From contig JANNVX010000014.1 of the NCBI GenBank assembly GCA_031414595.1, forward strand, positions 48,078-112,077: a DNA stretch of 64,000 nt, read 5' to 3'. Below the pieces are notes generated by a model. The model was not told the origin of the DNA and searched no databases. It saw only the letters and a list, made by a program, of their open reading frames with translations. A program made the position numbers and the translations under genes. Of this stretch, positions 1,648 through 11,108 are shown in pieces (the first letter of the stretch is position 1; every line of letters starts with the position of its first letter). This DNA comes from Deinococcales bacterium (GTDB taxonomy: Bacteria > Deinococcota > Deinococci > Deinococcales > JAAFIG01).

Positions 1648-2112
1648 CTAAGCGTCTTCCTCATCTCTAAGCTCTCGAGTGAATATGTTGGATTCGCAAT
1701 CAATTGGATGAAGACCTATGAATTCTGCATAATCAATGTCGTTCTTTTCAAGGTTTTGGTGTTCGTTTTTATGGACTCCATTTAATCCTTCATCCAACAT
1801 CCGAGCCAAATCCTCGACTTTCCCGCCCCGCTCCTTGAGAAGACGACAAAATTCTTGCCTGCCGATTGATTTTACCAAATCATCCCTATCAAAGAGCATC
1901 GCTGCGTATAATCTTGGTTCTGGCATAAAGGTTTTGTCGTGACTTGAGAATGCAATCAGGTCATAGTTAAGGTCACTTCTTTCACGAATCGCCACAAGAC
2001 GCTTCCCGTACAGGTAAAAATGTGTGTTTTTCGGTAACATTGTTGCCATCCTCATGCACTTGTAGAAAAGAACCTTGCAGCACCACCACAACCAAATCCC
2101 AACGACCACCAA
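1648..2112 (-). CDS. Hypothetical protein (true start probably downstream of 2112)
   Basis: 154-codon ORF with no recognised motif. Confidence 0.5.
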   Translation of the reverse strand: MVVVGIWLWWCCKVLFYKCMRMATMLPKNTHFYLYGKRLVAIRERSDLNYDLIAFSSHDKTFMPEPRLYAAMLFDRDDLVKSIGRQEFCRLLKERGGKVEDLARMLDEGLNGVHKNEHQNLEKNDIDYAEFIGLHPIDCESNIFTRELRDEEDA

Positions 2113-2221
2113 TGCTCAAAAATCACGATTATGACTACTCAAGTAGGAAACGATACTATTGAGGTCATGCTGTGATGATTGATTTCAAACCAAAAGTAAA
2201 TCATGAAACCACAAATAATCA

Positions 2222-2611
2222 CTACCTACCACGGTATCCAAAAACAAAAGCTGGAACTGGCTTGCTCATCGTCTCAAAGTCGGCTTTGACCTGTTGCCTA
2301 TGATTGGTCTGACGGGTGCTACCAGTGGGTTGCAATTGGTCTATCCAAAGTTCCAAAGCATCTTCTGGTGAGTCTTCGTAAACCTCGAGTATTTTAGGTT
2401 CGGTCGGTTTGATGCTATCCCAATGGATGTACCGATGTAAGCGTTGTAAATGCTGTTCTGGACTTTGACTCGAGGCAATCAGTCCAAGCATGTGTGATTC
2501 CTCGAGCATGATTGAACCTGCTTCTTCGCTTCTTAGAAGTTGCAGTAATTTACTGGTGTAGTCACGCCAGACTGTGTTGACTTCACGTTTTTGACGGTTT
2601 CTTTGGCTCAT
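2222..2611 (-). CDS. Hypothetical protein
   Basis: ATG at 2611 (MSQRNRQK) preceded by an AAGGAG RBS. Confidence 0.6.
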   Translation of the reverse strand: MSQRNRQKREVNTVWRDYTSKLLQLLRSEEAGSIMLEESHMLGLIASSQSPEQHLQRLHRYIHWDSIKPTEPKILEVYEDSPEDALELWIDQLQPTGSTRQTNHRQQVKADFETMSKPVPAFVFGYRGR

Positions 2612-2664
2612 ATGATTTACTCCTTTTACACATCTTTTGCTTGTAGTTGCTTTTATTTGAGAAA

Positions 2665-3009
2665 TTATCCAAACTTCCTTTGAACCAAACGCCAGCACAA
2701 AGTGACCATCAGACCAGCGAATAGAATCACTGCCCAACTTGGTAATTGCAGAATCACCGCCAAGCTGTATGAGTAAACCCCAGCACAAAAGGTTAAAGAC
2801 CAGACCAATGGAATTTTGGCAAATAATTGTAGAAACGCATCAAGATTATGCCCATAGTGCTTCTCGAGCAAGAATAGGATGATGGCAAAGACCATCAGGC
2901 TCGAGACAAGACAAAGCCCAATTGAGGCATTGACAGTCACGAGTAATCTTGTTGTCAAACCTCCAGCCAGAACTGCAAAAACAAGCAACTCGAGGTGAAC
3001 CCTTTTCAT
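2665..3009 (-). CDS. Small membrane protein, hypothetical
   Basis: About four hydrophobic segments; ATGA overlap with the upstream ORF. Confidence 0.6.
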   Translation of the reverse strand: MKRVHLELLVFAVLAGGLTTRLLVTVNASIGLCLVSSLMVFAIILFLLEKHYGHNLDAFLQLFAKIPLVWSLTFCAGVYSYSLAVILQLPSWAVILFAGLMVTLCWRLVQRKFG

Positions 3010-3359
3010 GGTGTCTCCAAGTTCGCCTTGCCAAAAAACCGAGTATTCATTTGTTCTCGTAACCGATGATTCTCAAGGGTGAGTTTACCAAGTAAGCGCT
3101 CGAGTAGGATTTCTTGGGCTTTTGATCGCTCGAGTTGTTTTTGTAGATTCAAATTCTCGGTCTCGAGTAAACCAGATTGTTGTTCTGAACTAATAAAAGC
3201 ATCATTACCAAAGCGTTCATATAAAGCTCGCCAAGAAAATAAGGTTGAAGCTAGGATTTTATGTTCTCGAGCCACAGCACTAGGTCGTTTGTGTTGTTCA
3301 ATGACTTCCTTGACCATTCGCAACTTAAATTCGGGGGTGTATAACTTTCGGTTTTTCAT
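3006..3359 (-). CDS. IS3-family OrfA-like HTH/leucine-zipper protein without a catalytic OrfB
   Basis: RKLYTPEFKLRMV...SAVAREHKILASTLFSWR motif followed by a coiled coil; ATGA overlaps on both sides. Confidence 0.7.
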   Translation of the reverse strand: MKNRKLYTPEFKLRMVKEVIEQHKRPSAVAREHKILASTLFSWRALYERFGNDAFISSEQQSGLLETENLNLQKQLERSKAQEILLERLLGKLTLENHRLREQMNTRFFGKANLETP

Positions 3360-3826
3360 GGTCTAGTCCTTACATTAAATGTAATCGTGTGAATCACGGT
3401 ATCTTTTGTATCTCGAGGAAGTTCAGTAAGCTCTAATTGATGCTCGTTATTTAGGGTAAAAGCTATGGTGATTCGGCTTTTGGTTAAAGTCCATCCATCA
3501 CTATTTACAGCACTTGATTCAAGAACTTGTAAAAAAGTGGTTAGAGCTTTCTCAAAGGTCGTCATAAATTGGGGGATTGGTGTTCCAAAATCATTAACAG
3601 TAAAACTTTGGCTATCCACTGAAAATTCAATGTGTACAAGTTCTTCCTTGGTGGTTACGCTGGTTGCAAGGTTTAGTTCGCTTGCTTTTCGGGTTTTGCT
3701 TGCTTTATCGAGATAGAACGCCCATGTCACTTGGGTGATCTGAATTCTTGTGCCTAAAAGGTTATAGGTGTGCGCTATATTGAAGGTGCTTTGTACCGCA
3801 CCAAGATAATCAATGGGCTGGTTCAT
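3356..3826 (-). CDS. Hypothetical protein
   Basis: 156-aa ORF translationally coupled (ATGA) to both neighbours. Confidence 0.6.
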   Translation of the reverse strand: MNQPIDYLGAVQSTFNIAHTYNLLGTRIQITQVTWAFYLDKASKTRKASELNLATSVTTKEELVHIEFSVDSQSFTVNDFGTPIPQFMTTFEKALTTFLQVLESSAVNSDGWTLTKSRITIAFTLNNEHQLELTELPRDTKDTVIHTITFNVRTRP

Positions 3827-4542
3827 TCTCGTGTCCCTAAGCCTAACTCGAGACCATCATCCAAAAGATGGTTTTCATGCTCGTTAGTTAAATTTTCCTC
3901 GAGAATAACTTTGCGTTTCATGGGTGGAATCCATTTCTTCCAATGCTCTGGGATTTCTAATCGCATTGGCTTGAGATTTTGAGCAATTAAGAAACCATGC
4001 TCGAGAACCCCAGTCATGTGTAGATACCGAGCATCTTCGACCAAATTCAGTAAATCGAGGGTGGTTTTAGCACTGACCACAAATGGTTCTATTTTTTTGT
4101 TGTCTGGTGGGTAAACTCGCAGCAATACTAATTTCTCAGCTCGGTCTAAACGGAGGACTTTGCCAGCCGCACTCCAGAAGGTATCAGCACCATTCAAATC
4201 AACGGCATTCTCGAGGGGCATGACTCGAGCCAAGGTGAGGTTGGCTAAGCGTTGGTCTTTGAAGGTCTTGCCGTACAACGTGGCTCTCCAAGTACCAGAG
4301 AGTTGGATTGAAGACTGTTCAGGGTGGGTGTTGCGCCACCTCGAGAAAACCCTTGGGTGAACTCGAGCGATGTAAGTACCATTTTTTGGATTGCCAAGTT
4401 GAATGGTGACTCGAGTGTTTTGCTGGTCATCTTGGATGGTGGCATTGGCTTGGATGAAGAAATGGTGGTTATAGTCGGTGTGAATACCTTTTGGCATTGG
4501 CTGTGGTGTGGTTACAAGAGTTTCAAAAACGTCATTTGACAT
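3823..4542 (-). CDS. Hypothetical protein, paralog of 4575..5171
   Basis: AGGAG RBS; shares WSA.G....D....LV..RVYP...PF..SA...H..G.L...LEIP..W..W with the upstream ORF. Confidence 0.7.
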   Translation of the reverse strand: MSNDVFETLVTTPQPMPKGIHTDYNHHFFIQANATIQDDQQNTRVTIQLGNPKNGTYIARVHPRVFSRWRNTHPEQSSIQLSGTWRATLYGKTFKDQRLANLTLARVMPLENAVDLNGADTFWSAAGKVLRLDRAEKLVLLRVYPPDNKKIEPFVVSAKTTLDLLNLVEDARYLHMTGVLEHGFLIAQNLKPMRLEIPEHWKKWIPPMKRKVILEENLTNEHENHLLDDGLELGLGTRE

Positions 4543-4574
4543 GCTATCTCCTATTCACGGGTTTCTTATCGTCT

Positions 4575-5171
4575 TTAGTTGGCTTTCCAGTTGCGCCAAC
4601 GATCAGGAATTTCTAAATCTTGATTGGTTAATACTTCTGCAACAAGCTTTTTGCCACTTAAGTTCCCTATCAAATGGACAAACTCATTTTTTCTTGGCAA
4701 CTCTTGTTCTACTTTCAAACTGGCTGAAATCAAAAATGGCGTGGCTCGAGCTTGCTCAGGGTAAACCCGAATCGTGACCAATCGGTGTATTGGGTCACTT
4801 TTGGTGATTTGTCCAATAGCACTCCATCGCGGCTGGTGGGAATCTTCTCGTTCTAACTCGAGGGGTTCAATACGATGTAGGTGAAGTGGTTCAAACAGCA
4901 CACTATCGTTCAAAGTGCGGAAATGAAGCGTACATAACCACCAACGATGACTTGCTGGGTTGAGCCTTAACACATCTGCACTGGCTTTAACCCGAAGCAT
5001 GGTGCTATCGGAGAGTTGGATGTCCATATTGTTACCGCTCCCTGAATCGTAAATACAAGCCGCCACTCGCATAAAAGCATGGCATCCATCAGGAATAGGA
5101 AAATCAAAAGTGAGTTTTCGTGGGGTAGTGGTCAATGGTCTGCCTCGAGCTTGGATTTTGTGACTGGTCAT
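4575..5171 (-). CDS. Hypothetical protein, paralog of 3823..4542
   Basis: ATG at 5171 with GAGGTG RBS; shared C-terminal motif with the downstream ORF. Confidence 0.7.
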   Translation of the reverse strand: MTSHKIQARGRPLTTTPRKLTFDFPIPDGCHAFMRVAACIYDSGSGNNMDIQLSDSTMLRVKASADVLRLNPASHRWWLCTLHFRTLNDSVLFEPLHLHRIEPLELEREDSHQPRWSAIGQITKSDPIHRLVTIRVYPEQARATPFLISASLKVEQELPRKNEFVHLIGNLSGKKLVAEVLTNQDLEIPDRWRNWKAN

Positions 5172-5313
5172 AAGAAATGCCACCTCTGTACACATCGGAT
5201 CGTGTTTGTTACAAAAGGTGGTGGTGTTAAACGAGATTGATTGTCTTGAACTGCCAACATGAGTTGTAAGCTCAAGTGCTGACCCTAATTGCTTGGGGCA
5301 TTTACATTATAAC

Positions 5314-5761: not shown

Positions 5762-6721
5762 GTGTTTCATATGATTGAAACTGCCAAAAACCCACACTGG
5801 GCAATCCACCCTCAAATCCAAAATGGTGAGTTGTTTGAATCTTGGATTGTGCGGTTGAGTGCCGAAAATGGCTTTCGCCTGCGCGAAGTGATACAGCAAT
5901 TAGAACTCAAAAATGTCTTTTGTTCTAAAAACAATGTTGAGATCAAAGCCGTAAGAAAATTGTCGGATGCAACTGGGATACTTCAATATCGAATCCTCGA
6001 ATCCCATCTTGGGTGGCTTCAAAATCACTCTGATCTTGCCTATGCAAAAACATTTACCCTTTGGGGGCGTAGCCCATCGGACACGATACAGCATTTTAAG
6101 TTTTGCCCAGACTGTTTTGCTAATCAAGACAAGCCACACATACTGCTTGACTGGGCATTTGAAATCACTCAGTTCTGCACGGTACATCAACGACCTTTAC
6201 TCGAGCGTTGTCCAAAATGCCGCGAGCCACTTCAGTTTAGTTTGCTTTTCAACAAAACAATACAACCCGAAATCTGCTCTAATTGCAGCACAAAAATGAA
6301 AATCCATGCTCGGAAACACAGCATTGATTTCAAATTTGGTCTCGAGCTACAAAGACAAATCTTGAGCCTCCGAAAACATGACCAAGTATCACCAAAACAA
6401 TCACGAATTATCCCAGCAAAAACGTTTTTATCAATTGTTGAGCGGATATTTTATCGCTTTACCAATTTACCCAACCAGCAAACCTTCTCTAAATTGACTG
6501 ATCTCTCAGTTATGTTGCTGGATGATCGTTTTTCGCAAGCGTACCGAAGAATAAACGCCCTGACCATTTGTGGCTGGCTTTTAGCCGACCCAATAGTACG
6601 AATTATTACTCTGCGCCAATTCACGCAAAAGTATGTTGAATACTCGACGGCTATTCAAATTATTTCTGTTCTGAATTATGCACAAGCGACATTGCAACCA
6701 CGTAATGGAACTTACCAATGA
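5762..6721 (+). CDS. tniQ: TniQ (Tn7 TnsD/TniQ family target-selection protein); ATG at 5771 is a possible start
   Basis: N-terminal HP...GELFESWIVRLSAENG; FCPDC...W.....FCTVH...LLERCPKC...CSNC zinc motifs; short (about 319 aa); ATGA overlap with cas5. Confidence 0.9.
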   Translation: MFHMIETAKNPHWAIHPQIQNGELFESWIVRLSAENGFRLREVIQQLELKNVFCSKNNVEIKAVRKLSDATGILQYRILESHLGWLQNHSDLAYAKTFTLWGRSPSDTIQHFKFCPDCFANQDKPHILLDWAFEITQFCTVHQRPLLERCPKCREPLQFSLLFNKTIQPEICSNCSTKMKIHARKHSIDFKFGLELQRQILSLRKHDQVSPKQSRIIPAKTFLSIVERIFYRFTNLPNQQTFSKLTDLSVMLLDDRFSQAYRRINALTICGWLLADPIVRIITLRQFTQKYVEYSTAIQIISVLNYAQATLQPRNGTYQ

Positions 6722-7452
6722 GCTTATTTGCACTCGAGGTTTGGGGCGATTACGCCTGTTTCACACGTCCTGAAACAAAAGTTGAAAGACTTAGTTACCC
6801 TGTGATGACTCCAAAAATTGCTCGAGCAATTTTTGGAGCGATCTACACCCAGTTTTCTGGGGGTGAAACACCTCACACAACTTTTTTCTGGCAAGTCAGG
6901 CGAATCGAAATCCTCAATCCAATTGTGTTTATTTCGTTCTCACACAATGAAGTCAAAGGGAGAGCAAGCACTTACAACATTTTGCGCTCAGTTCATCAGC
7001 CCGACGCACTTCAACCGCTCATGGCAGATGGCAATGATGATTCCAGCAAAGAGACTGGGCGCACCCAACGCCAATCAATGATTTTGCGCGAGGTGCGTTA
7101 TCGGATATTCGCTGAACCAGTGCTGTACAATCCAAACCAAAGCAATCTGAAGCAAATCACCCACGAATTTGCTCGACGTGCAGCCAAAGGCAAGTGTTTC
7201 CATCAGCCTTTTTTGGGATGCCGTGAATACATAGCATTTTTCCAGCCAGTTCCGCCCACATTTGGCGTTGGCGCACCGATTTTTGAAGATATTGGTTGGA
7301 TGATCTACGATACGTTTGATCTATCACAGCCAAGCTCAATCACCATTACACCAAGCATTAGTATCTTCAGGGCGACGATTCAAAACGGTGTTCTCGAGAT
7401 ACCGCCGTATGATAGCAACGAGGTACGCAAACTAGGACTGGGAGTGATTTGA
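6718..7452 (+). CDS. cas5c: Type I-C CRISPR-associated protein Cas5c (Cas5d)
   Basis: LEVWGDYACFTRPETKVERLSYPVMTP..AR.IF.AI; TQRQSMILREVRY; GKCFHQPFLGCRE. Confidence 0.95.
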   Translation: MSLFALEVWGDYACFTRPETKVERLSYPVMTPKIARAIFGAIYTQFSGGETPHTTFFWQVRRIEILNPIVFISFSHNEVKGRASTYNILRSVHQPDALQPLMADGNDDSSKETGRTQRQSMILREVRYRIFAEPVLYNPNQSNLKQITHEFARRAAKGKCFHQPFLGCREYIAFFQPVPPTFGVGAPIFEDIGWMIYDTFDLSQPSSITITPSISIFRATIQNGVLEIPPYDSNEVRKLGLGVI

Positions 7453-9266
7453 TGCTCGAGGCTCTGATCGAATATGCTCACCGAAAACAATTGGTTCTCG
7501 AGCCTGGTTTTGCTGGCAGGCGTATTCATTGGTTAATAAATCTTGACTCTAAAGGACAGGTTCAATCCGTTTCTTTTGCAGATGAATCCAAGCGACGAGC
7601 GAAGTTGTTTCCATGCTGTCCAGACCTGCAACAGCCCCAACTGATCAGGCTGCCACATGTACTTAAACAGCTTGGAATACTATCAACACGAGCAGCCCAC
7701 TTTTTAATGGATTCATGTTGTCGTGTGGTGCTTTATCCAGATAACGATCAGTTGGAACAACATAAGACTTTTCTAAACCTAATCCAACTAGCAAGCCAAG
7801 AAGTTAGGATATTACGACCAGTTGCAAAAATGCTTTCAAAGCAAAAGGAAATTGGTCGAGTACATCAAGCCCTCATTCAATTGAAAGCCACAAAAACCGA
7901 CAAAGTATCGTTTTCGGTGGATGGAGTGGTCATACTTGAGGATACAACGTGGCATGATTGGTGGCGAAGATTTTATATAACCACAAGCTCAAAGCAAAAT
8001 TCAGATCGTATGATCAGTCTGGTTTCAGGAGAAGTTATTTCGCCTGCCAGAACACATCCAGCGCTTAAATCCTTGGTCGAAAAAAAAGTAACTTTTGGAG
8101 CGGCAGTAGTGGCTGTGCATAAAACTGCCTTTACCTCATATGGGCTAAAACAAGCCGAACACGCCGCCATGTCAGGAGCATCTGCCGCTGCCTATCATGC
8201 AGCTCTGGAAGATTTATTGAGACAAACTAGGATGGTTCATGGTACGAAAGCGGTGTATTGGTACAACCAAGAAATTCCACTACAATCCGACCCACTGGCG
8301 CTGATGTTGCGCGATGAACGCATAGATAACATCAACTACCGAAAACAGCTTGAGGATATTCTTTCACAAGCTCGAAAAGATGATTCTCGAGATGTTGCTT
8401 GCCATATTGCTGTGTTGCGTGAAAATGAAAATCGGGTCAGGATTTCATTGTACAAAACGCTGCGATTGAGTGAAGTGGCGGCTGGACTTATTAAATGGCT
8501 CGAGGATACTTCAATTGATGGTTTGGCAGGTACTGGTTTCGTAGTTGATCTACCCAGCGAATTTGCTGGTATGTTTCGTCAACGAGTTGGGGGAAAAAGC
8601 GATAAGGCACTTGACTTTCAACCACTACTGATTGTGTTGTACCAGCAGATGCTCAACCCCACTCTACCCATTGCGATGGCTCTGGTTGATTATTCACTTA
8701 AATCGGTCATTACCAGCTTTGTAAAAGGCAAATTTCAGGCAGCATTTGCAACCAAGGCAGATTTACCATTGCGACAAAATTTGGTGATTTACATGGGTAT
8801 TTTGAAAGCATTTTGCCGTCACTCAGGTGATCGAGACCTATTGCAACAACTGAATCCTAATCATCCTAATTCACACTATCAAACAGGTCGGCTCACTGCG
8901 ATGCTCGAGCGTATTGATGGGTTGAATAATCCTCCACATGTTGAACTCAAAAACCAAAGGTTGTTTTTGCAAATTATGACGACACCGAACAATATCCTGC
9001 AAGAAAAAATGGCTTCCAGTCAACGAAAGCTCAAGCGACTTGAAAGAACTCGACGATGGTTCAGCCTATACTTACAAAAAGAAATGAATACGATTTGGGA
9101 GAATCTTGATGCTAAGGTTCGGAGTAATAGCTCAGTAAAACGCCAATGCTTATTCCTATTGGGTTACTTTCAACAAACCATTTCTCAATTGATTGAACCT
9201 GTGCAAAACGATGATTTTTACAATTTGGAGTCGAGAACCTTTAAGGAGCAACATGAAACCGATTGA
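7449..9266 (+). CDS. cas8c: Type I-C CRISPR large subunit Cas8c (Csd1)
   Basis: MLEALIEYA start; AFTSYGLKQ motif; C-terminal Y..GRL.A.LE and FLLGYF.Q motifs; lies between cas5c and cas7c. Confidence 0.9.
   Translation: MMLEALIEYAHRKQLVLEPGFAGRRIHWLINLDSKGQVQSVSFADESKRRAKLFPCCPDLQQPQLIRLPHVLKQLGILSTRAAHFLMDSCCRVVLYPDNDQLEQHKTFLNLIQLASQEVRILRPVAKMLSKQKEIGRVHQALIQLKATKTDKVSFSVDGVVILEDTTWHDWWRRFYITTSSKQNSDRMISLVSGEVISPARTHPALKSLVEKKVTFGAAVVAVHKTAFTSYGLKQAEHAAMSGASAAAYHAALEDLLRQTRMVHGTKAVYWYNQEIPLQSDPLALMLRDERIDNINYRKQLEDILSQARKDDSRDVACHIAVLRENENRVRISLYKTLRLSEVAAGLIKWLEDTSIDGLAGTGFVVDLPSEFAGMFRQRVGGKSDKALDFQPLLIVLYQQMLNPTLPIAMALVDYSLKSVITSFVKGKFQAAFATKADLPLRQNLVIYMGILKAFCRHSGDRDLLQQLNPNHPNSHYQTGRLTAMLERIDGLNNPPHVELKNQRLFLQIMTTPNNILQEKMASSQRKLKRLERTRRWFSLYLQKEMNTIWENLDAKVRSNSSVKRQCLFLLGYFQQTISQLIEPVQNDDFYNLESRTFKEQHETD
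8841..9266 (+). CDS. cas11c: Predicted Cas11c small subunit from an internal in-frame start within cas8c
   Basis: AGGTGAT RBS-like sequence followed by an in-frame TTG at 8841, directly before the QQLNPNHPNSHYQTGRL segment. Confidence 0.5.
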   Translation: MQQLNPNHPNSHYQTGRLTAMLERIDGLNNPPHVELKNQRLFLQIMTTPNNILQEKMASSQRKLKRLERTRRWFSLYLQKEMNTIWENLDAKVRSNSSVKRQCLFLLGYFQQTISQLIEPVQNDDFYNLESRTFKEQHETD

Positions 9267-10218
9267 AAATCGCTACGAATTTCTACTCATTTTTGATTGC
9301 GAAAATGGCAATCCCAATGGTGATCCCGACGCAGAAAACCTTCCAAGAATAGACTCCCAAGACGGTCATGGATTGGTCTCTCCAGAATCAATCAAACGAA
9401 AGATTCGTGACCGTATTGCCCTGAATGGTATAGAAATCTTTATCCAACACCAAACCAATCTCAATCGTGCGATTTTTGCGGCGCGTGAACAGAGTAATAC
9501 CTTAAAAGACAAATCCACCAAGATAACATTACAAAACGCCGCTGCAATTATGTGTAAACGATTTTATGATGTTCGGACTTTCGGTGGGGTAATGACTACA
9601 GGTGTCAATTCAGGTCAATTGACTGGACCTGTGCAGATTACATTAGCTCGCAGTGTTGACCCAGTTCATATCATGGATTGGGGAATTACTAGAGTGGCTG
9701 TTGCCGAAACTGTCCAAGGAGCAAAAACCCTGGCTGACTACGAACAATGGGAATCCGAACAAAATGCTTCAGATTTAAGAACTATGGGACGGAAAAGCCT
9801 GATTCCATATGGATTATTCGTAGCCAAAGGCTGCATCAGTGCGTTTGATGCGGAAAGAACAGGGTTTTCAGAAGCTGACCTCGAATTGCTCTGCGAAAGC
9901 ATGTTAGACATGTTTGAACACAGTCGCAGTGCCAGTCGTGGTTTGATGACCACAAGGCGCTTGGTAATTTTTAAGCATATAGGATCATCCAAAGACCCCA
10001 AAGTGCGCCTCAAACAAGCTAAACTAGGGCGTATTCCAGCACAAAATTTGCTCGAGTTAGGCAGAATTGTTCGCATTTCTCGCGTCAATAAAGATGCTTT
10101 TCCTCGAGCCTATCACGATTACGACGTGGTTGTGGATACCAGTGCATTACCAGAAACCATTGAAGTGCTGGATTTAGATTTGTGGGATGAAGAAAAGTTT
10201 CGCTCGGCTTGGGTTTAA
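9253..10218 (+). CDS. cas7c: Type I-C CRISPR backbone subunit Cas7c (Csd2)
   Basis: [55 protein letters not shown] RBS before the ATG at 9253. Confidence 0.95.
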   Translation: [321 protein letters not shown]

Positions 10219-10390
10219 GCGAACCCTTAGTGGCACTAAAATCACCTATAGTTCGCGGAAACCAAATTTCGTCTATGACGTGATTCTTCTGTGCGATATT
10301 GAGTAGTGATCAAAAAATTAATGTTGAATTATTGGGTTCGCAGAATGTATTCCTTTTTGACTTTGTACTATGAAAAGATATACATTTACA
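10219..10390 (+). promoter_or_regulatory. CRISPR leader
   Basis: AT-rich non-coding segment between cas7c and the first repeat, with a GCGAAC...GTTCGC inverted motif and a second GGTTCGC, as often seen in type I leaders. Confidence 0.65.
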
Positions 10391-10568
10391 GTCTCAATGG
10401 CATCTAGCCGTCGAGACGCTTGAAACCAAACCCGACGAAAGGATGCACATTACGATAATCCGTCTCATGGGCATCTAGCCGTCGAGACACTTGAAACATT
10501 GCCATCTAAAGTCCAATCACATACATTGGCATGTCTCTATAGCTTTTAGACATTGCGATGCTCGAGAT
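10391..10568 (+). CRISPR. Mini CRISPR array: three 36-bp repeats (third degenerate) and two 35-bp spacers
   Basis: R1 10391-10426 GTCTCAATGGCATCTAGCCGTCGAGACGCTTGAAAC; R2 10462-10497 (33/36); R3 10533-10568 (24/36). 71-bp period, GTCTC...GAGAC hairpin, TTGAAAC end. Confidence 0.9.
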
Positions 10569-10673
10569 TTGGAACTTTACAAAAAAAGTCTTTGCAGTAG
10601 CGACAATAAACCGTTAGCACCACTACATTCTCTTAAAACCTTGAATAAACATAGGACATGAGCTAGGATTACA

Positions 10674-10731
10674 GCCTCAACGGTACTTAGCCATCGAGAC
10701 GCTTGAAACTAACCAATTGACCTATATGCCC
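10674..10731 (+). CRISPR. Separated atypical repeat plus tRNA-targeting (homing) spacer
   Basis: Repeat 10674-10709 (30/36 to R1), then TAACCAATTGACCTATATGCCC, which matches the reverse complement of 11009-11030 at 18/22. Confidence 0.88.
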
Positions 10732-10813
10732 GAATTTATTTTTTCCAAAGCCTCTTGTTCCAGATATGCGGAGGTCAAAGCCAAAAGGTTTGCTTGAAAG
10801 GAGTATTGGGATC

Positions 10814-10961
10814 ACTGACACGGTAAACGATAAGAAATGATATAGAATTTAACTCGAGTTCGTTAAACACAATGTTTATTTAGGAAAGTTCAATCAGTGC
10901 CACGGTAAACGATATTGACATTCATAAAAATAATTACTGACAAAGTAAACGATAATTCACA
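10814..10961 (-). mobile_element. Tn7-like transposon end with three TnsB-binding repeats and terminal TGT/ACA
   Basis: ACTGACACGGTAAACGATAA (10814-10833), AGTGCCACGGTAAACGATAT (10896-10915), ACTGACAAAGTAAACGATAA (10936-10955), then TTCACA ending at 10961. Confidence 0.85.
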
Positions 10962-10966
10962 CCTAT

Positions 10967-10995
10967 TTGCCAAATGTGCATTTTACGGTTAATCT
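10967..10995 (+). promoter_or_regulatory. Sigma70-type promoter of the tRNA gene
   Basis: TTGCCA (10967-10972), 17 bp, TAATCT (10990-10995); 13 bp upstream of the tRNA. Confidence 0.6.
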
Positions 10996-11008
10996 AGGGG
11001 TCGTGCGA

Positions 11009-11085
11009 GGGTCTATAGCTCAATCGGTTAGAGCGGAGGTCTCATAAACCTTAGGTTCGGGGTTCAAGTCCCCGTGGACCCACCA
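11009..11085 (+). tRNA. tRNA with CAT anticodon (probably Ile2, possibly elongator Met; not initiator)
   Basis: Acceptor stem GGGTCTA/TGGACCC plus ACCA; D arm GCTC..GAGC; anticodon arm GAGGT-CTCATAA-ACCTT; T loop TTCAAGT. Confidence 0.95.
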
Positions 11086-11108
11086 AATTATGAAGTTTGG
11101 ATTTAATA

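Follow-up and report, generated by a model that had tools for sequence, protein, structure and literature searches.

The window, which is the whole 64,000-nucleotide stretch of DNA that was analysed, carries part of a Tn7-like, CRISPR-associated element of 48,819 bp. The element contains, in order, a tnsA-tnsB fusion, tnsC, cargo, tniQ-cas5c-cas8c-cas7, a two-spacer array, a delocalised guide unit and an end with TnsB sites. It stops before a tRNA-Met(CAT) gene at 11009-11085 on the + strand (ARAGORN), which is its attachment site.

The tnsAB-distal terminus (...TTCACA) is at 10956-10961 (+ strand). It was placed by its inverted similarity to the other terminus, at G000:C14:10220 (identical at 23 of its first 30 nt), by breaks in metagenomic contigs and by an empty-site junction. 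Three TnsB-site-like repeats of family D2 precede it on the + strand, at 10811-10832, 10893-10914 and 10933-10954. The D2 motif is present three times, inverted, at the other end. The 5-bp target-site duplication, CCTAT, is at 10962-10966 and also stands before the other terminus, at C14:10215-10219. In the sister species G005 the site is empty, and the two flanks meet at a single CCTAT. The first-pass annotation had placed this locus in a CRISPR-associated transposon (CAST), and the inverted ends, the duplication and the empty site establish that context. Judged by its sequence and its natural insertion geometry, the element has the Tn7 core, the discrete ends with a 5-bp duplication and the missing nuclease and adaptation genes that define a CAST.

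The tnsA-tnsB fusion and tnsC were assigned from Pfam domain matches (G000:C14:10351-13681). The fusion is an 837-aa ORF with weak TnsA-like, rve and Mu-transposase-C matches (E about 1e-3). The last of these scored 22.9 bits against a cut-off of 21.7, and the ORF had neither a PDB sequence match nor an NCBIfam match. TnsC matched the TniB/TnsC Pfam family (E 2.5e-31) and PDB TnsC chains. The tniQ gene (5762-6721, + strand, 319 aa) is the first gene of the cas operon and is separated from tnsC by 40 kb. It matched Pfam TniQ (E 4.5e-16) and, weakly, the sequences of TnsD/TniQ chains in the PDB. It is the only TniQ-family gene of the element, and a search of its own genome returned it and one TniQ-like gene on contig C101, nothing else.

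Three cas genes follow on the + strand. The cas5c gene (6718-7452) belongs to the pre-crRNA endonuclease family. It matched Pfam Cas_Cas5d, NCBIfam Cas5c (114.4 bits, cut-off 85) and PDB Cas5c chains (E 1e-32 to 1e-26). The divergent cas8c/csd1 gene (7449-9266) matched Pfam Cas_Csd1 (E 1.8e-57) and scored 152 bits in NCBIfam, under the equivalog cut-off of 218.65. The cas7/csd2 gene (9193-10218) matched Pfam Cas_Cas7 (E 3e-80) and NCBIfam Csd2 (277 bits, cut-off 182). Its true start may be later, because the listed start overlaps cas8c. The scanned ORFs hold the I-C gene set, Cas5c, Cas8c and Cas7/Csd2 with no Cas6. The earlier assignment to type I-C therefore stands, with Cas5c and Cas7/Csd2 above the NCBIfam cut-offs and Cas8c/Csd1 above that of Pfam and below the NCBIfam equivalog one.

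No cas3, cas1, cas2, cas4, cas6 or second tniQ was found among the Pfam-scanned ORFs of the element (left of the window, ORFs of at least 120 aa). Pfam scans of the cargo found no large TnsD-like gene. The second, large TniQ-family protein with a DNA-binding C-terminus on which TnsD-dependent homing relies was not seen in the scanned element. The host keeps its own cas3-cas2 set on another contig (G000:C18). Its resident I-C defence system is complete, has Cas3 and uses a handle almost the same as that of the element. The element Cas8c is 23% identical to that of the host defence system, and the two Cas7 proteins are 39% identical.

The array and the delocalised guide unit

Repeat copies are present at 10391-10426, 10462-10497 and 10674-10709. 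The first two belong to a mini CRISPR array at 10391-10532 (+ strand), which contains R1 (10391-10426), S1 (10427-10461), R2 (10462-10497) and S2 (10498-10532). A degenerate third repeat starts at 10533 (+ strand), directly after S2. Both spacers are 35 nt long, and neither had a target in a search of the own genome. The predicted fold energies of R1 and R2 are -14.6 and -12.1 kcal/mol.

The third copy is an atypical, delocalised repeat (10674-10709, + strand). It lies 141 nt (10533-10673) beyond the end of S2 at 10532 and 105 nt beyond the degenerate third repeat. It differs from R1 at 6 of 36 positions (2, 8, 11, 13, 14 and 20), all in the hairpin part, and it folds weakly (-5.4 kcal/mol). 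Its final 16 nt, handle included, are identical to those of R1. A promoter-like site precedes the array at 10357-10386 (+ strand; TTGACT-18-TACATT, 9/12, by consensus match only). A promoter-like copy precedes the delocalised unit at 10641-10669 (+ strand; TTGAAT-17-TAGGAT). This promoter is tentative: the site agrees at 8/12 positions by eye, which is under the scan threshold. The 61-nt repeat family D1 reaches about 25 nt upstream of the delocalised repeat, where it is 75% identical to the leader copy. A search of 10200-11100 found no terminator-like sites.

The guide starts at 10710, so that the spacer sits directly behind the atypical repeat, as had been claimed. In a direct alignment, 10710-10731 on the + strand (TAACCAATTGACCTATATGCCC) matched the reverse complement of 11030..11009 (TAACCGATTGAGCTATAGACCC) at 18/22 positions. 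A 24-nt unit would end at 10733. The protospacer (11009-11030, - strand) is bases 1-22 of the tRNA gene. The mismatches are at guide positions 6, 12, 18 and 19. At position 19, a guide G faces a protospacer A, which gives rG:dT with the target strand. Because the ARAGORN gene starts at 11009, the match stops at tRNA base 1; from position 23 onward, agreement is at chance level. The flank of the protospacer, at the PAM position, is CTC (reverse complement of 11031-11033, - strand). The first-pass annotation had given the same match, mismatches, wobble, flank and end point, and all were reproduced. By sequence, the guide pairs with tRNA-Met bases 22 to 1 at each of the 19 positions read by a type I complex, with 18 Watson-Crick pairs and one G:T. 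The element end lies 42-47 bp past the last paired guide base. The duplication is 5 bp and the tRNA-Met gene is intact.

In an unbiased scan, all 22-mers of both strands between the cas7 stop and the end of the element were compared with 140 bp of flank, and positions 6, 12 and 18 were left out of the score. The best pair was exactly the guide and tRNA-Met (18/19), and 0 of 300 flank shuffles equalled the score. When only the one guide behind the repeat is considered, at 238 positions of the flank, a binomial model expects about 5e-8 such matches. Across the 4.49-Mb assembly, no non-self site suits the guide better than the flanking tRNA-Met (18/19). The runner-up is 16/19 with a GAC flank, and the remaining sites are at most 15/19. 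Three of the four mismatches fall on positions 6, 12 and 18 (hypergeometric p = 0.0026).

The target in the family and the relatives of the element

The computed PAM at tRNA-Met is CTC in 13/14 family genomes; the tRNA call of the 14th genome is off by one base. All 13 registered tRNA-Met genes mismatch the guide at positions 6, 12 and 18, and in two of them the mismatches are restricted to these positions.

Metagenomic copies of the element end (X1, X2 and X3) were retrieved as contigs from three runs of one study. These contigs diverge to a new flank exactly after 10961. X1 and X2 have the element end before the same tRNA-Met with a much changed flank, and X3 has an unrelated 45-nt flank. 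Read from their flanks, these copies represent independent insertions before tRNA-Met. A 581-nt piece of X1, from a 93%-identical copy, has 36 listed differences outside 10694-10764 and none inside. A second X1 contig carries a guide variant. Its position 18 has another non-matching base, and its position 19 pairs with the tRNA. The reading of every sixth base as free, proposed earlier, agrees with the mismatches in 13/13 genes, with the unmatched position 18 of the variant and with mismatches at 6 and 18 in the relatives.

An HMM search gave 13 TniQ representatives at E < 1e-30. A scan of genome and metagenome contigs with a 3-sequence TniQ alignment gave no matches. With a 6-sequence alignment, the metagenome contigs gave none and the genome contigs gave only the three known loci. 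Four loci with context were compared (the window, L021, L022 and L023). All are from one bacterial family, so the relatives are not fully independent. Two of the three relatives have a delocalised repeat followed by a 20-24-nt guide to their own flank, both with a TTC PAM. Guide base 1 lies 69 bp from the end of the element in the window, 66 bp in L022 and 67 bp in L023. Type I-C is characterised by a TTC-type PAM 5' of the protospacer. The putative PAM in the window is CTC, compared with TTC in the two relatives. According to the Wimmer preprint, CTC is a weaker I-C PAM, the second or third best of two characterised I-C systems.

L022 has an inverted delocalised repeat. Its guide matches the 3' end of tRNA-Leu(GAG) at 17/20 positions, with mismatches at 6, 9 and 18. 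The PAM sits in the T-loop, and the match stops at the last base of the tRNA. The position-9 mismatch was seen in 19/19 genomes; therefore some mismatches fall off the flipped positions. A strong hairpin lies downstream of this guide. L022 is the only one of the three guide loci with such a structure; in the window and L023, RNA structure downstream of the guide was not beyond that of shuffles.

The L023 guide matches the 3' end of an ABC permease gene at 17/24 positions. The match spans 23-24 nt, with mismatches at 3, 4, 5, 6, 18, 21 and 24, and every third guide position is a codon wobble position. In defence systems, seed mismatches at 3-5 would weaken binding. The match ends at position 24, and the coding sequence runs eight codons further with chance-level agreement (4/11, by eye). 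Unconstrained shuffles reached the observed score in 26/300 cases for L022 and 6/300 for L023, which makes these weak tests when taken alone. The first-pass annotation had proposed looking in related elements for variation at every sixth position. Positions 6 and 18 bear this out in L022 and L023, and position 9 of L022 does not.

L021 is the one of the four loci that fails to fit the homing-guide reading. Its element end abuts tRNA-Arg(CCT), with 1 nt between, and a second tRNA-Arg copy lies inside the element after an atypical repeat. With the internal copy masked, the search gave no guide to the flank. Possible explanations that were considered for L021 are host tRNA genes in tandem, a second mini-element, and a recombination event that involved a guide and the tRNA.

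The homing reading and its alternatives

We interpret the feature as the homing guide of a type I-C CRISPR-associated Tn7-like transposon, with a probability of about 0.85. A separate short guide most likely steers the element to a safe tRNA landing site. The match to the flank supports this reading, which the first-pass annotation had reached, as do the two relatives with guides to different flanks at an equal distance.

The small unit would be transcribed apart from the two-spacer array. A search for RNA runs covering 10230-11010 returned none, which counts neither for nor against expression. In the unit, a copy of the array promoter and of its first repeat would lead into a short guide. Cas5c would cut the repeat and leave a normal handle. 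Cas7, Cas8c and Cas5c would then assemble on the guide. In solved Cascade structures, the flipped-out bases are at positions 6, 12 and 18, which are hence free. TniQ at the PAM-distal end may recruit TnsC and the TnsA-TnsB fusion. Because only the tRNA sequence would be recognised, one and the same guide should suit the tRNA in all family members that were searched. Other targets would be left to the 35-nt array spacers.

An effective guide length of about 22 nt is plausible. We tentatively extend this, at less than even confidence, to one I-C protein set that would form complexes of two sizes. The 35-nt array spacers would form a normal complex for mobile targets. The delocalised unit would give a 24-nt, hairpin-less crRNA, whose complex would be shortened to about four Cas7 subunits and reserved for homing. 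The short length, free sixth positions, weak PAM and absent 3' hairpin may also shield the host tRNA gene from the resident I-C defence. Such a unit would parallel, within type I, the short guide of V-K elements and would have arisen independently.

The alternative that survives best, although we consider it unlikely, is a full-length guide. The crRNA would be 35-40 nt long in a normal-size complex and would pair only over the PAM-proximal 20-24 nt, and 22 nt would be merely where the conserved target stops. The array spacers are 35 nt, neither a terminator nor a defined 3' end was found after the guide, and the stretch conserved in X1 extends to 10764. The X1 change at 10775 turns a weak hairpin at 10750-10775 into a perfect 5-bp stem (by eye). 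In two loci, the window and L022, the match ends where the tRNA ends. However, the coding target of L023 continues for eight codons, over which agreement past position 24 drops to chance. I-F3 systems also need PAM-distal pairing. A 35-nt protospacer would put the insertion about 30-35 bp beyond it, whereas 22-24 nt gives 42-47 bp, nearer the 43-45 bp given for a I-F CAST in Hu et al. 2024 (PMC11300857).

Homing directed by a protein is improbable. TniQ or another element protein would read the tRNA gene in a TnsD-like manner, as in I-B2 and I-D elements, and the spacer match would be a relic or have another role. Cyanobacterial elements with a TnsA-TnsB fusion use a TnsD-like protein at tRNA sites, according to PMC9881144, and L021 lies at a tRNA with no guide detected. 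The element has one small TniQ (319 aa), however, and the large TnsD-like gene is absent from what was scanned. The guide loci have three unrelated targets, each with a matching guide at equal distance. TnsD inserts 29 +/- 1 bp after the tRNA in that source, compared with 42-47 bp here, on the 5' side in the window.

More improbable still is a regulatory crRNA. The unit would keep Cascade bound at the tRNA gene, either for repression or as a mark of an occupied site, rather than choose where to insert. The target is intact after insertion, so the complex could stay bound, and standalone repeats with regulatory cr-like RNAs are described in a preprint (10.1101/2023.03.03.530964). Against this, the PAM, protospacer and element end keep a fixed distance and orientation in three loci, as guide-directed insertion predicts, and insertions lie before the same tRNA within unrelated flanks. 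Repression of a tRNA gene would presumably also be costly.

A chance match or a leftover tRNA fragment is hardly credible. D-arm sequences of tRNAs are common in genomes, but no shuffle reached the score and the tRNA is the unique best site in the assembly. Integrase att repeats are direct copies. The match here is inverted, begins immediately behind a CRISPR repeat and shows a mismatch period of 6 nt, so an integrase-type att duplication was dropped.

Comparison with known systems

I-C CASTs have stood as putative, and the array, att site and probable homing guide of this element extend that picture. Nine putative I-C CASTs have been described (10.1101/2021.08.16.456562; PMC11300857). In them, TniQ is reported to lie beside TnsABC, and no array, no atypical self-targeting spacer and no tRNA or att site near the ends is reported. 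Their homing is left open there, because neither a self-targeting spacer nor an att site is reported. The window element shares with those of Rybarski et al. 2021, as described, the Tn7-like core, Cas5, Cas7 and Cas8c, and the absence of cas3 and adaptation genes. It differs in the place of tniQ, which opens the cas operon, in the fusion of tnsA to tnsB, and in having an array, a delocalised guide and a defined att site. It does not match the Rybarski description of an arrayless element with TniQ adjacent to TnsABC and no self-targeting spacer. We found no later account of an I-C CAST array, att site or homing in the literature searched, which covers subscription journals thinly.

In the I-B2 and I-D CASTs (Hsieh and Peters 2022, PMC9881144), the tRNA site is served by another, large TnsD-like protein, and insertion is at the 29 +/- 1 bp given above. 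The window element resembles them in its TnsA-TnsB fusion, its small TniQ with a type I complex and its tRNA attachment site. Unlike them, it has no detected TnsD-like gene, and its guide matches the site.

The self-targeting guides of I-F3 elements have a diverged repeat and tolerate att mismatches, some at every sixth position, with the wobble register on sixth positions (Petassi et al. 2020, 10.1101/2020.07.02.184150). The diverged repeat and tolerated mismatches recur here, and L023 shows the codon-wobble register. The I-F3 guide of that source is a full-length, in-array spacer with repeats on both sides and is cut by Cas6, whereas the present unit lacks a clear downstream repeat, matches over 20-24 nt and has no Cas6 to cut it.

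The locus has a full parts list: both ends, the duplication, the empty site, tnsAB, tnsC, tniQ, cas5, cas8, cas7, the array, and the guide with its target. This makes it feasible to reconstruct the I-C CAST subtype and put it to a direct test. As a compact type I system that lacks Cas6 and has TnsA fused to TnsB, the element is also relevant to programmable DNA insertion. The guide further gives a natural illustration of the rule by which every sixth base is skipped.

In its way of working, the element resembles V-K elements. A V-K CAST reportedly homes to a tRNA gene with a short, delocalised crRNA and a shortened match. V-K CASTs use Cas12k and a tracrRNA and are without TnsA. The window element is like them in its guide unit outside the array and its truncated att match (22 nt in the window, 20 nt in L022 and 23-24 nt in L023). 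It is not a member, because Cas12k and the tracrRNA are absent. Its effector would be a multi-subunit I-C complex, and its mismatches follow the 6-nt rule of type I. This comparison points to an origin of short, separate homing guides in type I elements too, in addition to those of V-K.

Element structure and host context

By its sequence, the element is predicted to be a complete type I-C CRISPR-associated transposon (CAST). It encodes tniQ upstream of the guide (5762-6721), followed by cas5c (6718-7452), cas8c (7449-9266), and cas7 (9193-10218), all identified in Pfam and NCBIfam scans. For Cas5c, sequence similarity to Cas5c chains of known structure was detected as well. Downstream of the guide, a 22-nt motif occurs three times (10811-10954), and the terminus ...TTCACA ends at 10961. 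The window corresponds to C14:48078-112077. Some 38 kb beyond its left edge, an 837-aa ORF has weak TnsA-like, rve, and Mu-transposase-C matches. Behind this ORF lies a TniB-type TnsC, which likewise matches TnsC chains of known structure. The terminus recurs in inverted form just before these TnsAB/TnsC ORFs, starting at position 10220 of the same contig (C14:10220), and three inverted copies of the 22-nt motif follow it. The 5-bp sequence CCTAT is found on the outer side of both termini. The paired termini with CCTAT on both sides give an element length of 48,819 bp. The empty site is present in a sister-species contig (G005:C368), where both flanks are joined over a single CCTAT (92% identity in the left flank and 95.6% in the tRNA flank).

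The cargo to the left of the window (C14:15650-38786) includes a GTPase/SIR2 conflict system (GAP1/double-GTPase/EAD1-SIR2). It also encodes an Rhs-type protein of 3,646 aa, which has Rhs repeats and a PT-HINT domain and lies next to an immunity-like gene of the SUKH family. Within the window, at 1064-1507 and 1648-5195, the element contains an Xre-type antitoxin gene and, just before tniQ, a small transposase HTH ORF together with several consecutive minus-strand ORFs that have no Pfam match. The element ORFs scanned do not include cas3, cas1, cas2, cas4, cas6, or a second tniQ.

The same genome contains a complete I-C defence locus (cas3, cas5, cas8c, cas7, cas4, cas1, and cas2). Repeats of the host I-C-type arrays end in ...GATTGAAAC, and those of the element end in ...GCTTGAAAC. 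Identity between element and host is 23% for Cas8c and 39% for Cas7. Each system could conceivably use RNAs of the other. Outside the window, this genome has another Tn7-like gene set (C82:40450-71753 and C101:1-5153). C82 contains tnsA and tnsB and a type III-B (Cmr) locus that includes Csm6 and a reverse transcriptase beside Cas1. Its array runs off the contig end. The same array is found on C101, with cas6, a TniB-type tnsC, and a 410-aa tniQ behind it. The two contigs may represent one element that carries, or uses, a type III system.

Match between the putative guide and the flanking tRNA

Direct alignment of 10710-10731 with the reverse complement of 11030..11009 gave 18/22 identity, with mismatches at guide positions 6, 12, 18, and 19. 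Position 19 is a G facing T on the target strand. Past position 22, agreement is only at chance level. ARAGORN detected a single tRNA in the window, a tRNA-Met(CAT) at 11009-11085 (+). Given this start, the matching stretch corresponds to tRNA bases 22 to 1, with its end at base 1. The three bases 5' of the protospacer, on the protospacer strand, are CTC. The coordinates, identity, mismatches, CTC, and end point reported in the first-pass annotation were all correct.

All 22-mers from cas7 to the terminus, on both strands, were scanned against 140 bp of flank with positions 6, 12, and 18 ignored. The top pair was this guide with this target (18/19), and all 300 flank shuffles scored lower. For a single guide defined by its repeat and 238 flank positions, the binomial expectation is ~5e-8. 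The flanking tRNA is also the best non-self site of the guide in the 4.49-Mb assembly, where the runner-up scored 16/19 with a GAC flank. The match is genuine and far exceeds what chance would give. The placement of three of the four mismatches on positions 6, 12, and 18 has p = 0.0026. We interpret the sequence as a delocalised, short, tRNA-directed putative homing guide, the mismatches of which would sit on unread sixth positions. Being short and mismatched, and lying next to a second-rank PAM, such a guide may make it less likely that Cas3 attacks the tRNA gene.

Orthologous tRNA-Met genes were taken from 14 genomes of the family. The computed PAM was CTC in 13 of them, and in the 14th the tRNA call was off by one base. 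The mismatch sets were [6,12,18,19] in three genomes, [2,6,12,18,19] in one, [6,12,16,18,19] in five, and [6,12,16,18] in two. In the remaining two (G007 and G012), 6, 12, and 18 were the sole mismatches because a C at tRNA base 4 pairs with guide position 19. Positions 6, 12, and 18 were therefore mismatched in 13/13 genes. The sampled hosts never fit the guide at sixth positions, and the read positions are perfect or near-perfect, which supports the earlier proposal that every sixth guide base is unconstrained. Pairing at guide position 12 would require a G at tRNA base 11, which is unusual for tRNAs. This argues for drift as the source of the sixth-position mismatches, rather than copying from another host's tRNA.

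Related copies of the element were retrieved as contigs from three public sequencing runs of one study (X1, X2, and X3). An X1 contig of 1,403 nt spans 10505-11085; the alignment has 38 differences and 5 gaps. Of its differences, 36 are listed, none of them within 10694-10764, and ~18 fall within the 47 nt separating terminus and tRNA. The X2 flank diverged similarly. X3 contigs leave the window sequence exactly behind 10961 for unrelated sequence, which overlaps the stretch preceding the tRNA and gives a 45-nt flank unlike that of the window. The X3 tRNA does not differ from the window's. The same element end thus lies 45-47 bp before the same tRNA in differing backgrounds. A second X1 contig aligned over 10671-10726 and then continued as variant sequence. 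In the X1 guide variant, position 18 is changed and still unmatched, and position 19 now pairs with the tRNA.

Array, putative guide unit, and related loci

The mini array after cas7 contains two 36-nt repeats (10391-10426 and 10462-10497) with 35-nt spacers and ends in a degenerate third repeat (from 10533). The repeat before the guide (10674-10709) directly adjoins 10710 and lies 105 nt beyond the degenerate repeat. It has changes at 6/36 positions relative to the first repeat, each of them within the hairpin half, and the final 16 nt are unchanged. Its predicted fold is -5.4 kcal/mol, versus -14.6 and -12.1 for the array repeats. Similarity between array start and guide unit (61-nt repeat family D1) reaches ~25 nt upstream of the repeat, so the guide unit looks like a copy of a putative promoter plus first repeat. 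X1 and X3 contigs contain other or extra spacers behind the first repeat of the array (10391-10532), with inserts of 34 nt and 26 nt at joints 10426>10391 and 10495>10391 and several loose ends. These differing spacers indicate that array content turns over in an element without cas1 or cas2. The host I-C adaptation genes could supply spacers in trans. A possible GGTTCGCG-like motif was noted by eye at 10336-10345 between the cas genes and the array leader, and likewise near the arrays of two related loci (L021 and L022) and of the host I-C locus (G000:C18).

The TniQ of this element is rare. A word-based search retrieved 3 proteins, and a profile search of 1.84 billion representatives retrieved 13 at E < 1e-30. 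Genome searches retrieved three further loci (L021, L022, and L023), all from the same family. Loci at that similarity occur in 4/19 family genomes and 4/364 class genomes. All three relatives encode tniQ and then I-C cas genes.

(a) L022. This locus contains an inverted repeat copy ~290 bp inside the element end. Between its guide and the final 20 bases of a tRNA-Leu(GAG), 17/20 positions match, and 6, 9, and 18 do not. The PAM, TTC, lies in the tRNA-Leu T-loop. The match stops at the final base of the tRNA, which is 46 bp away from the terminus.

(b) L023. The cas5 and cas8c genes are fused in one 950-aa ORF (G010:C161, 836-3688). A delocalised repeat precedes a guide with a 17/24 match to an ABC permease gene at its 3' end, next to a TTC PAM; the mismatched positions are 3, 4, 5, 6, 18, 21, and 24. 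Every third guide position (3, 6, 9, and onwards) coincides with a codon third position. Translated, the guide would read HRQIIEGV and the target reads QKQIIEGV, so the guide looks as if it was taken from an orthologue.

(c) L021. At this end (G004:C136, 1-520), a single nucleotide separates the terminus from a tRNA-Arg(CCT) gene. Another copy of the tRNA-Arg, diverged and accompanied by an upstream region of its own, is found within the element right behind the atypical repeat. An IS is inserted after cas7. A search for a guide to the flank of this locus found none. L021 does not fit the homing-guide pattern.

Guide position 1 and the terminus are 69 bp apart in the window, 66 bp in L022, and 67 bp in L023. 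Positions 6 and 18 are mismatched in both of these relatives too, but not all of their mismatches lie at sixth positions (9 in L022; 3, 4, 5, and 21 in L023).

Match lengths are 22 (window), 20 (L022), and 23-24 nt (L023), versus 35 nt for array spacers. That the match ends at the tRNA end in two loci says little about guide length. The coding target of L023 runs eight codons further and agreement nevertheless ends at position 24, which favours a guide unit of ~24 nt. A longer guide RNA, only partly paired with its target, is a live rival. It would account poorly for the L023 end point. It is consistent with the conservation of the X1 copy through 10764, and no terminator or consistent hairpin marking the guide 3' end was found.

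Comparison with known systems

Short delocalised guides are a feature of type V-K systems. For I-F3 systems, atypical repeats, tolerated mismatches, and a wobble register have been reported by Petassi et al. (10.1101/2020.07.02.184150). Fused-TnsAB I-B2/I-D elements reach tRNA sites via a TnsD-like protein, according to Hsieh and Peters (PMC9881144). Altae-Tran et al. mention that Cas8 is fused to Cas5 in an incomplete, Cas3-less I-C system. The L023 fusion recalls this, and that system may belong to the lineage of this element. Putative I-C CASTs without recognisable arrays appear in Hu et al. (PMC11300857). A literature search covering largely open-access main texts found no description of an I-C CAST with an array or homing guide. 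The nine I-C CASTs of Rybarski et al. (10.1101/2021.08.16.456562) were described as having TniQ beside TnsABC and lacking an array, self-targeting spacer, and att site. In contrast, the element here contains an array and a putative homing guide.
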